Positions 51,960 to 62,941 of a DNA stretch of 64,000 bases are shown one piece after another. Each line of letters begins with the position of its first letter. Within the stretch, counting starts at the first letter, position 1. Below the pieces are notes generated by a model that made no database searches, was not told the origin of the DNA, and saw only the letters and a program-made list of their open reading frames with translations. This stretch comes from a virus. Its lineage: Duplodnaviria; Caudoviricetes. The translations under genes and the position numbers were made by a program. The DNA lies in the IMG/VR virus record IMGVR_UViG_3300036985_003045; one strand, 5' to 3'.

Positions 51960-54794
51960 ATGGCAGCATCAACTATAACATTACGTAATATTAAAGGTAG
52001 TCCGTTGACCAATACGGAAATGGATACCAATATTTCTCTTTTGAATAGTTATTCAAAAGGTCATTTAAGTAAAACAATAACAACAAATGTAACATTAACT
52101 GATATAGAAGCGGAAAATTACTTTTTTAATATTTCCGGTACTTTAACTGCAGATGCTACTATAACAATACCAAGTATACTTATTAAGTCCTGGACAGTTA
52201 ATAATATAACTTCAGGCGGGTTTAGTATTACTGTAAAATATGCTACAGGTGCAGGTATTACAATACAAAATGGTACTAGATCTACATTTTATTTTGATGG
52301 CACTAATATGCTTAGTATTAGTTATAGTAATACTGTACGTATATCAGATACAGGTACTGTCACAAATACAATGTTAGCGTCAAGTACAATTTCAGGTGTA
52401 TCTCTTGGTTCAAATTTAAATGCATTAACTATTGGCACAGGATTATCAGGTACCACCTATAATGGTTCTTCTGCAGTTACTATTGCTATTGATTCTACTG
52501 TTGCCACATTAACAGGTTCTCAAACTCTTACTAATAAAACCCTTACCTCTCCAGTAGTTACAACTAGTTTAACTACTACAAACACAAGTTTTGCTTTACT
52601 TAATGCAACTGCAACAACTGTGAACTTTGCAGGTGCAGCAACCACATTAACTATGGGTGCATCTACTGGAACTTCTACAGTTAATAATGATTTAGTTGTT
52701 TCCGGTAACTTAACTGTAAATGGAACAACTACTACAATCAATACAGCTACATTGTCTGTTGATGACAAAAACCTTGAATTAGGATCTGTTCAAAATGCTA
52801 CAATTAGTGCAACAGGAACAGTAGGAACAATTACAGGGACAGGTCCTTGGGCAGCGATTGTTACTGGAATGACAACTACTACAGGATTGATAGTAGGTAG
52901 TTCTTTATCTGCGACTGTTGGAACTGGAAGTTTAGGTGGAAGTGGTTCATATATTATTACATCTATAGATAGTAAAACACAAGTATCATATAGTGCTACA
53001 GGCGGAACTACACCAGTGGCAGGAACAATCACTGCAATTACTACAACTGGATATAATAATATCACTGCTAATGGTGCTGGTATCACAGTCAAGGGTACTA
53101 CAGATAAGACGTTAAATTGGGTAAGTTCTACAACTGCTTGGACTTCCTCAGAAAACTTAGATATTGCACCTGGTAAATCTTATTCAATAGCTGGAACAAG
53201 TGTTCTTTCTTCTACTACATTAGGTTCGGGTGTTACTGCTTCTTCATTAACATCTGTTGGAACATTAGTTAATCCTGCATATTCTGGCACTTTGACTGGT
53301 GGAACTGGTATAATTAATATCGGTAGCGGTCAGATATACAAAGATGCTTCCGGTAACGTGGGGATTGGTACGAGTAGTATAACGCAATTATATTCTGCAA
53401 TAACTACTGCTGTAGCTGGTAACTTGCGATTAGGGTCATCGGCTACCACAGGGTTTATATCTTTTGGAGATCAAACATCAGCTACAAGTAATGTTGGTAT
53501 TTGGAGAGGGGCAGGTGGTAATTCGCTTGCCACAGGTAACTATTTGCAACTTGGTGGTTATGACGGTATTAGTTTTACCACAGGCAATGCTAGTTTAGCT
53601 TCTCAAACAGAGCGCCTACGCATCGACTCCTCCGGCAACGTGGGGATAGGTTATGCAATCCCTGCAAATACATTACATGTCGCTAATGGGGTAGACACTC
53701 AAATCAGAGTCAGTACGCCAACAAATAATTTTTATTTTGATATGGGTAGAGCTTCCGCTGATGGTCTATTTCAAATAAATGGCAATCAAGGATCGGGATA
53801 TAAGTGGCTTAATAATGGCACTGAGGCAATGCGTATTAGTGCTGCTGGCTACGTGGGGATTGGAACTACTAGTCCCGGTTCTATTGGTAAATTAGTTGTG
53901 TCCAACACAGCAACCACTGATAATAGCAGTATAGGTGTTGTGGCAACCGCATTTTTATCCACTCCTACGTATACAGGAACTTTTTTAAGTCAAGGTGATA
54001 CAGCAACGGCTGGAACTGTTTGTGGCTTACCTAAGGCTAACTTAGGGTCTTTACTGTTTCAAAATGTAAGCGCAGGGTTAATTTACACCAATAGTCAATC
54101 TTTAATATTCGGAACTGCTGGTGTAGAAGCCTTACGAATAAACACTACACAAGACGTATCCATCCCAGCAGGGCAACTTACAATAACCAACGCCAACAAC
54201 ACCGCAACAGGTGGTGGTCAGCTATACCTAAATGGGGCTACGGGCAATAGGATAGATTTTAATACTGCTGGAGTTGCTCCTCCTGCTTTTACTACAAGAA
54301 GTCTTGGTACTAAAATTGTTCTTTATCCAGGTGTAGCTGCCGCAGCAGTTGATTTTGCGTTAGGAATACAAGGAGGCGGAATGTGGCTTTCAGTTTCCAC
54401 AACCGCTGAAACTTTCAGATGGTATGGAGGTACAACAATTGCCGCTACTTTATCAGGTGCAGGTGATTTTGAAGCAACTGCAAATATAACAGCTTATTCT
54501 GATGAACGACTTAAAGAGAACATTAAAACTATTCCAAACGCATTAAATAAAGTCAATACTATTCGTGGTGTTACATTCACCCGTAATGATTTGGACGATA
54601 AAGAAAAAGTCCATACTGGTGTAATAGCTCAGGAAGTTCTGAAAGTATTACCAGAAGCAGTATCACAAAATGAAAATGGAATATATTCTGTTGCTTATGG
54701 TAATATGGTAGGTCTATTAATAGAATCAATCAAAGAATTATCTGAGCAAAATCAACAATTACTAAAAAGAATTGAAGCCTTAGAAAATAAATAG
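51960..54794 (+). CDS. Tail fibre with C-terminal peptidase-S74 intramolecular chaperone
   Basis: GNVGIGT repeats; SDERLKENI, GVIAQEV...LPEAV, LLIESIKEL. Confidence 0.88.
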   Translation: MAASTITLRNIKGSPLTNTEMDTNISLLNSYSKGHLSKTITTNVTLTDIEAENYFFNISGTLTADATITIPSILIKSWTVNNITSGGFSITVKYATGAGITIQNGTRSTFYFDGTNMLSISYSNTVRISDTGTVTNTMLASSTISGVSLGSNLNALTIGTGLSGTTYNGSSAVTIAIDSTVATLTGSQTLTNKTLTSPVVTTSLTTTNTSFALLNATATTVNFAGAATTLTMGASTGTSTVNNDLVVSGNLTVNGTTTTINTATLSVDDKNLELGSVQNATISATGTVGTITGTGPWAAIVTGMTTTTGLIVGSSLSATVGTGSLGGSGSYIITSIDSKTQVSYSATGGTTPVAGTITAITTTGYNNITANGAGITVKGTTDKTLNWVSSTTAWTSSENLDIAPGKSYSIAGTSVLSSTTLGSGVTASSLTSVGTLVNPAYSGTLTGGTGIINIGSGQIYKDASGNVGIGTSSITQLYSAITTAVAGNLRLGSSATTGFISFGDQTSATSNVGIWRGAGGNSLATGNYLQLGGYDGISFTTGNASLASQTERLRIDSSGNVGIGYAIPANTLHVANGVDTQIRVSTPTNNFYFDMGRASADGLFQINGNQGSGYKWLNNGTEAMRISAAGYVGIGTTSPGSIGKLVVSNTATTDNSSIGVVATAFLSTPTYTGTFLSQGDTATAGTVCGLPKANLGSLLFQNVSAGLIYTNSQSLIFGTAGVEALRINTTQDVSIPAGQLTITNANNTATGGGQLYLNGATGNRIDFNTAGVAPPAFTTRSLGTKIVLYPGVAAAAVDFALGIQGGGMWLSVSTTAETFRWYGGTTIAATLSGAGDFEATANITAYSDERLKENIKTIPNALNKVNTIRGVTFTRNDLDDKEKVHTGVIAQEVLKVLPEAVSQNENGIYSVAYGNMVGLLIESIKELSEQNQQLLKRIEALENK

Positions 54795-54816
54795 TCATAC
54801 ACTTCAAAATATTCTA

Positions 54817-54847
54817 ATCCTATGTATCCTCTTGGATTACATAGGAT
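54817..54847. terminator. Hairpin terminator between convergent genes
   Basis: ATCCTATGTA...TACATAGGAT 10-bp stem with A/T tracts on both sides. Confidence 0.7.
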
Positions 54848-54851
54848 ATTT

Positions 54852-55121
54852 TTATTTTAAATCATCTCCACCAAAATCGTCACAAACATCTTTTTTAAAT
54901 CTTTCAATAATATCCATAGCTTCCGTTATATCTTCATCAGTCGCATCTGGATATAATGATTTCAGTTTTTTTACACCTATACTTTTTAGTTCTTTATATG
55001 TATAGTCTTTTGTTTCAGTAACATGCCAAAGAGATAATACTTGATCATCCTTTGCAGAACCTTCTGAAGAACTATTATAAAAACTATACCAATTAGAAGT
55101 AGACCATCTTGCATAACTCAT
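54852..55121 (-). CDS. Hypothetical protein
   Basis: MSYARWSTSNWY...; first gene after an early promoter. Confidence 0.65.
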   Translation of the reverse strand: MSYARWSTSNWYSFYNSSSEGSAKDDQVLSLWHVTETKDYTYKELKSIGVKKLKSLYPDATDEDITEAMDIIERFKKDVCDDFGGDDLK

Positions 55122-61837: not shown

Positions 61838-62103
61838 TCTTCTATTCCAAAATGATTTTTGATTGAGCCAATACAAAATTCTGGACCAATCTCAGGATCA
61901 ACCCCAACCCAGCTTTTTGTTTCTTTAAGATCTTTATCAATTTCAATCCATTCTTCACACAACATTATACATTCCTTCACAATCAATTCAGCAAACTTTT
62001 CCTCGTTTAATCGCAATACACAATCTTTATCGCCATAATAATCGGTATAGACATATATTTCCATTGCCTGCTTTTTGAGTTTTTCTACGTTATCGTTCAT
62101 CAA
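61834..62103 (-). CDS. EKFAxLI...HFG family protein
   Basis: EKFAELIVKEC...IKNHFGIEE. Confidence 0.7.
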   Translation of the reverse strand: MMNDNVEKLKKQAMEIYVYTDYYGDKDCVLRLNEEKFAELIVKECIMLCEEWIEIDKDLKETKSWVGVDPEIGPEFCIGSIKNHFGIEE

Positions 62104-62365
62104 CTACTCCAAAATGTTGTTTCATAGCACTGCAACAATCAGCAACAGCAGCATATAAAATACCTTCTTCCCGTGCTGCAAAGCATTTTCTCATATATTC
62201 ATCAAGTAAATCGTCTTCGCATACACGAACACATTCTTGGATAATCAATTCAGCAAACTTTTCCAATTCTGGTAAATCTAATTTGATAAGTAGTGAACCC
62301 TCGTATGGTCTAGTAATAGTTCGTCCAGAAGATTTAGACAATATTTCAAAGAATTTATCGTTCAT
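62090..62365 (-). CDS. EKFAxLI...HFG family protein
   Basis: EKFAELIIQEC...MKQHFGV. Confidence 0.7.
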   Translation of the reverse strand: MNDKFFEILSKSSGRTITRPYEGSLLIKLDLPELEKFAELIIQECVRVCEDDLLDEYMRKCFAAREEGILYAAVADCCSAMKQHFGVVDER

Positions 62366-62552
62366 TCTTCACCCACTTATTTCCAAGAATTAAAAACTGC
62401 ATCTTTCTCCAAAACCAGTTAGGTTCGTTGTCTTTATTTGGATGATATACCAAACCATTACCATCTGGACGACTACCAAACATATAACATTTCCATTCTG
62501 ATTTTTCAGGAATGGATAGTGTATAGGTTGCATTTTGGATATCTTCATTCAT
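62355..62552 (-). CDS. Hypothetical protein
   Basis: SEWKCYMFG, PNWFWR.MQ.L.LG.KW. Confidence 0.65.
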   Translation of the reverse strand: MNEDIQNATYTLSIPEKSEWKCYMFGSRPDGNGLVYHPNKDNEPNWFWRKMQFLILGNKWVKNER

Positions 62553-62941
62553 AATCTTATTTCCTCTAATGATATTGTATGTTCTCTACCCAGATTATTC
62601 ACTACAATACCTGTTCCCAATGTCCATCCACACTTTTCCTCAAATCTAACTATATGAACATATAATGTATGATTTGGATACTTCTGTCTATGATATTCTA
62701 CTACACGACCAACATATAATTGTTTCAACAACCAAACAAATCCTTGACCTTCTAGTTCATCGGTCTTTTGTTCTTCATACGATTTACGAGGTTCTTCACG
62801 TTTTGTTGGATCATTGTGATATTGAGCATACGGATCTACTGGTTTTTCAAATAGACCAGTACATTGAGGACCACCTTTTTTATCTGTAAATCTATCAACA
62901 CTTCCAAAACCACTCATTATTCTACTCCAATGCCGTAACAT
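62549..62941 (-). CDS. Hypothetical protein
   Basis: ORF track; start uncertain. Confidence 0.55.
   Translation of the reverse strand: MLRHWSRIMSGFGSVDRFTDKKGGPQCTGLFEKPVDPYAQYHNDPTKREEPRKSYEEQKTDELEGQGFVWLLKQLYVGRVVEYHRQKYPNHTLYVHIVRFEEKCGWTLGTGIVVNNLGREHTISLEEIRL

Follow-up and report, generated by a model that had tools for sequence, protein, structure and literature searches.

Gene content and GATC content of the window

The window analysed here is the whole 64,000-nucleotide (nt) stretch of the IMG/VR virus record IMGVR_UViG_3300036985_003045. Its genes are of the kind found in T4-like freshwater phages, with a tail fibre, an adhesin-like gene ("adhesin B") and a glycosyltransferase-metallophosphoesterase pair ("plcP-agt") in the right-hand part (Table 1). 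An earlier note on this DNA described the tetranucleotide GATC as absent from positions 1-52278 and present thereafter, and explained this step by selection in a single genome that had recently imported the fibre, adhesin B and plcP-agt region. The step is exact as a count. Nevertheless, the window is almost certainly an assembly chimera of two co-occurring T4-like phages, a rare one on the left (L) and an abundant one on the right (R), and the step would be a difference between their two genomes.

Table 1 Features of the window and their assignment to phage L or phage R (aa, amino acids)
Feature	Position	Strand	Remarks
Phage L segment	1..51342		Baseplate genes through accessory region; no GATC
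L gp26-like baseplate gene	13802..14527	+	35% identity between L and R
L gp32	17754..18617	-	45% identical to R gp32; GATC 0 vs 4 in R gp32
L PhoH	23578..24348	-	R PhoH 85% identical, about 1.1 kb past the junction gene; GATC 0 vs 3 in R
L DHFR-like gene and ThyA	31650..33118	-	R instead has a ThyX-type thymidylate synthase
L pqqA, 24 aa	38919..38993	-	Sole host hint used
L accessory blocks	42754..44700	-	R counterparts at 60500-61627; 79-89% nucleotide identity; one copy per parent
L short gene block	46425..46600	-	R counterpart at 55190-55367; 79%
gp38-type adhesin of L (PF05268)	47883..48821	-	gp38-family gene at the equivalent place in L-type contigs
Hybrid (junction) gene	51019..51573	-	R-type N-terminus and L-type C-terminus; phrog_624
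Block common to L and R	51343..51492		150 nt, one mismatch to contig L083
Phage R segment	51433..64000		17 GATC
GATC sites in the R part	52279, 52783, 53469, 53791, 55043, 55434, 56259, 57177, 57466, 57613, 59359, 59809, 61896, 61929, 62809, 62833, 63260
Tail fibre with S74 chaperone domain, R	51960..54794	+	Same position in L081, L082, L091 and G001
Adhesin-like 410-aa gene of R (adhesin B)	56038..57270	-
GT4 glycosyltransferase and metallophosphoesterase of R (plcP-agt)	58481..60411	-	Same order in R contigs

The k-mer and Markov comparison that the earlier note had proposed confirmed its count of the left part: 1-52278 contains no GATC, where 146 would be expected from base composition and 164 from a second-order Markov model, and 52279-64000 contains 17 against 39 expected. 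For 1-51342 alone, the count is 0 against 162 expected, and the probability of zero given 162 is about 4e-71. The roughly fifteen right-hand sites listed in that note are correct to within a few bases, but those at 55434 and 63260 had been missed. The R part is also poor in GATC (17/40, ratio 0.43, p 3e-5). Among the 4-mers of sizeable expectation, GATC alone is wholly missing from the left part, where the other palindromes with an expectation above 10 reach 0.5-1.0 of it. These 4-mer counts rule out general palindrome avoidance or AT bias as the cause of the zero on the left.

The absence of GATC on the left results from a synonymous choice of Asp codon, GAC and never GAT being used before a C. 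In 30 left open reading frames, Asp preceding a codon that starts with C is written GAC 44 times and GAT 0 times, versus 39 and 601 times before other codons (Fisher p 1e-46). Asp-Pro, said in the earlier note to be written GAC-CCN, takes this form in all 27 cases. On the right, the GAC/GAT counts are 12/8 before codons starting with C versus 21/124 elsewhere (p 3e-5). The GC content rises from 30% on the left to 34% on the right, and the CpG ratio is 0.35 in L versus 0.56-0.60 in R. Further words are scarce in 1-51342 (GGTACC 0/7, GTTAAC 2/12, CCCGG 0/7), and the R part of the window is scarce in GGCC (1/10) and CATG (16/47). L and R may have faced different restriction sets.

The junction at 51.4 kb

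A comparison of the window with itself, in which accessory blocks are present twice, suggested two genomes. Alignment with R contig L082 and L contig L083 maps the switch from R-type to L-type sequence to 51343-51432, and not to 51.9-52.3 kb, where the boundary had been placed before. Each of the 211 informative sites from 51899 down to 51433 is R-type in the window, and from 51342 leftwards nearly all informative sites are L-type; the 90 nt in between are identical in the window, L082 and L083. The block common to both phages corresponds to codons 28-77 of the junction gene, whose match to the pyrimidine-dimer glycosylase family PF03013 is weak and under the cut-off. A contig from another run, X2, matches 51343-51788 exactly, and its remaining 146 letters do not fit the window. 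The first GATC lies 850 bp beyond the switch; this gap is unremarkable, as its probability is 0.32 at the site density of R.

The two sides of the junction also differ in depth. In the source run X1, which we take to be SRR11849220 on the basis of a 4875-bp contig, the contigs at 43-50.5 kb have depths of 8.5-11.3 (weighted 9.3) and those at 52.5-63 kb depths of 68-92 (weighted 86.4); all depths are those of Logan contigs, not of raw reads. A contig of depth 86.6 in the same run differs from the window at 50678-50993 and departs from it at 50613. In runs X2, X6 and X7, from three other studies, the right part is present and the left is near zero apart from short shared pieces. Runs with a small share of the words of the window were left aside as evidence.

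Independent contigs continue each side in its own way. R-type contigs that carry the 87-aa gene (51570-51833) proceed to a 183-aa gene, PhoH, gp33, gp59, gp32 and baseplate genes within about 9 kb. L-type contigs that carry the 82-aa gene (50777-51025) have a different upstream region, in which there is no fibre gene. The R-R order is seen in L081, L082 (and seven similar contigs), ERZ1426761 (and seven more), L229, L233, L237 and L185, and the L-L order in L083 (and four more), L084 (and six more), L085, L086, two ENA contigs and L178-L180. None of these independent contigs shows the R-L order of the window. Over 9-11 kb, L082 and L091 match the R segment at about 96% identity. Each parent genome likewise has one of the twin short peptide genes, the R copy being present in L081 and L082 and the L copy in L083-L085.

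R thus has core genes of its own, which are 22-49% identical to those of L at the protein level (gp59 30%, gp6 37%; gp32 and gp26 in Table 1), PhoH being more similar. These core genes contain GATC: a 63-kb R-type contig of core DNA has 158 sites against 195 expected, and the flank from PhoH to the baseplate genes has 22/33, versus 0/43 in the corresponding region of L. Overall, the GATC ratio of R is 0.8 in core and 0.4-0.5 in accessory DNA. To the right of the window, R-type DNA bears GATC for at least 40 kb further (L091 28/75, L279 31/61, G012 66/84). Since the core genes of R are distinct and GATC-bearing, and its DNA remains so onward, the fibre, the adhesin and plcP-agt are native to R.

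The proposal of a single genome with a fibre, adhesin and plcP-agt module lately imported from a GATC-tolerant phage is therefore hardly credible. It would account for the start of the GATC-bearing part near the fibre gene and for the change in GC content. However, the supposedly foreign signature is not bounded on the right, the depth changes ninefold at the boundary instead of being equal, R contigs of other samples have the same gene order and a second set of core genes, and the core of R has an equal or higher rate of GATC. An assembly chimera, which the earlier note had itself named as an outcome that would refute its proposal, is indicated by the depth step, the switch within a shared block and the separate continuations of the two sides.

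We propose that the shared block, being about as long as a short read, was handled by the assembler as a repeat. The assembler would have gone round the whole R circle of about 150 kb and left it through the L branch on one side, while the other end of the contig stopped inside the shared block. The full contig would then comprise 51.3 kb of L and a complete turn of the R circle ending in the block. Consistent with this, the hybrid gene product, in a 160-aa form starting at an inner ATG, is recorded on a single Joint Genome Institute (JGI) contig of 201,736 bp, and an R-type junction protein that breaks off at residue 40, within the shared block, is known from one JGI contig of the same length. 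The full-length 184-aa hybrid product has no record in the protein collection, which is partly an effect of gene calling, as the 160-aa form is recorded once. An exact DNA search of the JGI contigs with an R-side intergenic stretch gave no match and is uninformative.

The junction might instead be a real crossover, either a rare recombinant or a co-infection cointegrate of L and R formed through the 150-nt block. The block itself shows recent exchange between L and R, accessory blocks are shared at 79-97%, and a strain-specific 4.9-kb piece of L is recorded in the source run only, so that a private strain is conceivable. Against this, the contig appears to consist of one entire R circle with 51 kb of L attached, at about 202 kb as compared with some 150 kb for the R genome; a phage whose genome is larger than that of R by a third and has two sets of baseplate genes is implausible. 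Moreover, the R-L order occurs on no second contig, and the right-hand depth of 86.4 equals that of the left flank of R (86.6) and not the sum of about 96, although this argument is weak given the spread of 68-92. We consider such a crossover very improbable. Some weight is left to it because the depths come from contigs and because the lineages swap alleles in the junction gene: L082 (R) shares the block with L083 (L), and L081 (R) shares another allele with L085 (L-like). If it were true, T4-like phages with 22-49% core identity and differing GATC status would recombine through a block of 150 nt.

Several points weigh against the assembly chimera. The allele sharing among L081, L082, L083 and L085 shows that the distant lineages of L and R do recombine within the junction gene itself. 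The junction was assessed from Logan contigs, and the upstream flank of L itself was not seen within the source run. The assignment of both junction proteins to one contig, namely this one, is inferred from equal length, source and exact sequence match. Finally, only candidates can be named for the host of L and for its GATC-directed enzyme.

GATC avoidance in L and retention in R

The strong selection against GATC that the earlier note had seen on the left is borne out for the 51 kb of L, and a GATC-directed host system is its simplest source. Close relatives of L are similarly purged (L093 0/31, L094 0/14, L083 2/64, L257 1/61, observed/expected), and more distant look-alikes are partly purged (L084 9/60, L085 18/65). 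A clustering of GATC in the variable genes of L-like relatives found no support, as its densities inside and outside homologous segments are alike. The purge in L is genuine and is ordinary restriction-site avoidance of an already known kind. R is under weaker pressure and retains 0.4-0.8 of the expected GATC. A 133-kb record nearer to L than R is (G005, IMG/VR 3300042987_001940; gp32 58%) has GATC 5/451 and GTAC 42/266.

The purge is probably due to a GATC-cutting type II restriction enzyme of the DpnII/MboI or Sau3AI kind in the hosts of L. A search with a pattern of the L pqqA matched Methylococcales, Cycloclasticus and other gammaproteobacterial-type records only; this pattern was built from the phage peptide and is a biased host hint, and symbionts of marine sponges supply the closest peptides (21/24). 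One lake genome has a similar pqqA; in its family, DpnII is found in 2/121 and DpnI in 1, and a Sau3AI-like two-domain enzyme adjoins a C5 methylase in one genome. A bacterial genome (L457; G073:C4:4641-8390) has a DpnI-family gene beside a DpnII-family match, with opposite methylation preferences; the DpnII frame looks interrupted.

Alternatively, the purge could result from Dam/MutH mismatch repair, from DpnI-type cutting of methylated GATC or from a phosphorothioate defence directed at GATC, a group of causes that we regard as possible but on the whole unlikely. In coliphages, counterselection by MutH has been documented (Deschavanne and Radman 1991, as cited in PMC5014478), phages whose hosts possess type IIM enzymes avoid GATC (PMC6286503), the pqqA pattern points to gammaproteobacterial-type records, and the purge in the T4-like G010 is not relieved by cytosine modification. 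However, MutH-domain hits amount to 2/121 in the candidate host family, itself uncertain, and one of them is Sau3AI-like. GAAC/GTTC, the second common motif for phosphorothioation, shows no depletion (357/351). Sporadic GATC nucleases and rare MutH in the candidate family are more in keeping with restriction at the level of strains than with mismatch repair across a whole lineage.

The earlier note had suggested a connection with the MTase-like internal proteins. No tie between these proteins and the purge was found, though no test was aimed at one, and an injected GATC methylase would presumably make the purging of GATC unnecessary. Searches of the R-type fragments and of relatives, most of them fragmentary records, detected neither of the Dam families PF02086 and PF05869. 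Upstream of the junction gene, L-type relatives have a variable site occupied by a Mom-family modification gene or an N6/N4 methyltransferase (L257:11209-11925; L084:732-1736).

If the window is a chimera, R might retain GATC by shielding its DNA with hydroxymethylcytosine, L having to purge its sites for want of such shielding, although as the cause of the difference this is rather doubtful. R-type contigs encode a 215-aa deoxycytidine monophosphate (dCMP) hydroxymethylase of the T4 gp42 type (E 3e-79 to PDB 1b49), in which the positions of the catalytic Cys and of the dCMP-selecting Asp are aligned; the gene is tied to the window through overlapping contigs of one sample and lies about 37 kb outside it. 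The share of host sites avoided is 2.4% in coliphages with this enzyme and 55.8% in those without it (PMC6286503). In contrast, a thymidylate-synthase-fold gene of G010 (IMG/VR 3300020147_000009; L361:1498-2232) reads like gp42, yet GATC in that phage is only 4/202 in 60 kb, and the complete genome G004, without a gp42 hit, keeps 0.70 of its GATC. G010 and G004 contradict hydroxymethylcytosine as the sole explanation, and the presence of gp42 was not found to predict GATC content among the four records compared. Moreover, avoidance of GATC, GGCC and CATG persists in the accessory DNA of R, and any modification genes of L would lie beyond the L DNA covered. Judged from these genes and counts, cytosine modification would be at most part of why R keeps its sites. 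An R-type cluster (L365:3-3727, L370:991-2593) comprises the dCMP hydroxymethylase, a dCMP deaminase, an inositol-phosphate-synthase-like protein, a small phosphatase-like protein and two unknown enzymes.

Consequences and comparison with known systems

As a piece of biology, the GATC step is an artefact, and its practical value lies in quality control. The contig is best divided at 51343-51432. The DNA to the right of the split probably represents the full circular genome of one phage, about 150 kb in size, and 1-51342 represents a fragment of a different one. Features paired across 51.4 kb belong to two phages. This applies to the gp38-type adhesin of L and the 410-aa adhesin of R, so that the notion of "two alternative adhesins" as a switchable pair on one fibre is confounded by the join; adhesin B has no Pfam or PHROG match and no BLASTP match to the adhesin of L. 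It also applies to the twin peptide genes, the two pqqA copies, the two gp26 frameshifts and the internal-protein cassette considered with right-hand genes. As the distant phages L and R trade accessory genes, it is likely that they have hosts or a gene pool partly in common in spite of their unequal GATC content.

Some further observations concern single features. The L cassette at 45657-50531, with a radical SAM gene (48867-50126), is recorded in the source run only, and within it 46600-50126 has no GATC against 8.7 expected. Four tandem copies of an 11-bp unit lie at 18630-18673, immediately upstream of gp32, and a perfect 36-bp tandem duplication at 57521-57592 lies within the 138-aa gene.

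No isolated close relative of these phages was found in INPHARED, where the best match is gp32 of marine phages at 65-73% nucleotide identity. Among uncultured phages, the product of gene 95 of Uncultured Caudovirales phage UFOVP1655 (CAB4222403.1) is identical to the L-type junction protein in L083. The R-type homologue of T4 gp42 differs from its T4 counterpart in its surroundings, as it adjoins an inositol-synthase-like gene and not glucosyltransferases.

Like phiX174 and other coliphages (Deschavanne and Radman 1991, as cited in PMC5014478), L has zero GATC and a probable gammaproteobacterial host; unlike in the case of coliphages, MutH is rare in its candidate host family. Roughly one viral genome in ten shows the complete elimination of a site, mostly of an orthodox type II site and in non-temperate phages (Rusinov et al. 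2018, PMC6286503). L, a lytic dsDNA phage, has likewise lost a 4-bp palindrome wholly and by means of synonymous codons, but, in contrast to the cases of that study, its site is not matched to an actual host system.

The window resembles chimeric metagenomic contigs in its depth step and in the switch inside a short shared block. The full contig would also share duplicated single-copy genes with them, and its end apparently lies in a second copy of the block. The window differs from chimeric contigs generally in that its parents are distant in their core (gp32 45%) and have only accessory DNA in common, which is why a k-mer signature reveals the join from the sequence alone.

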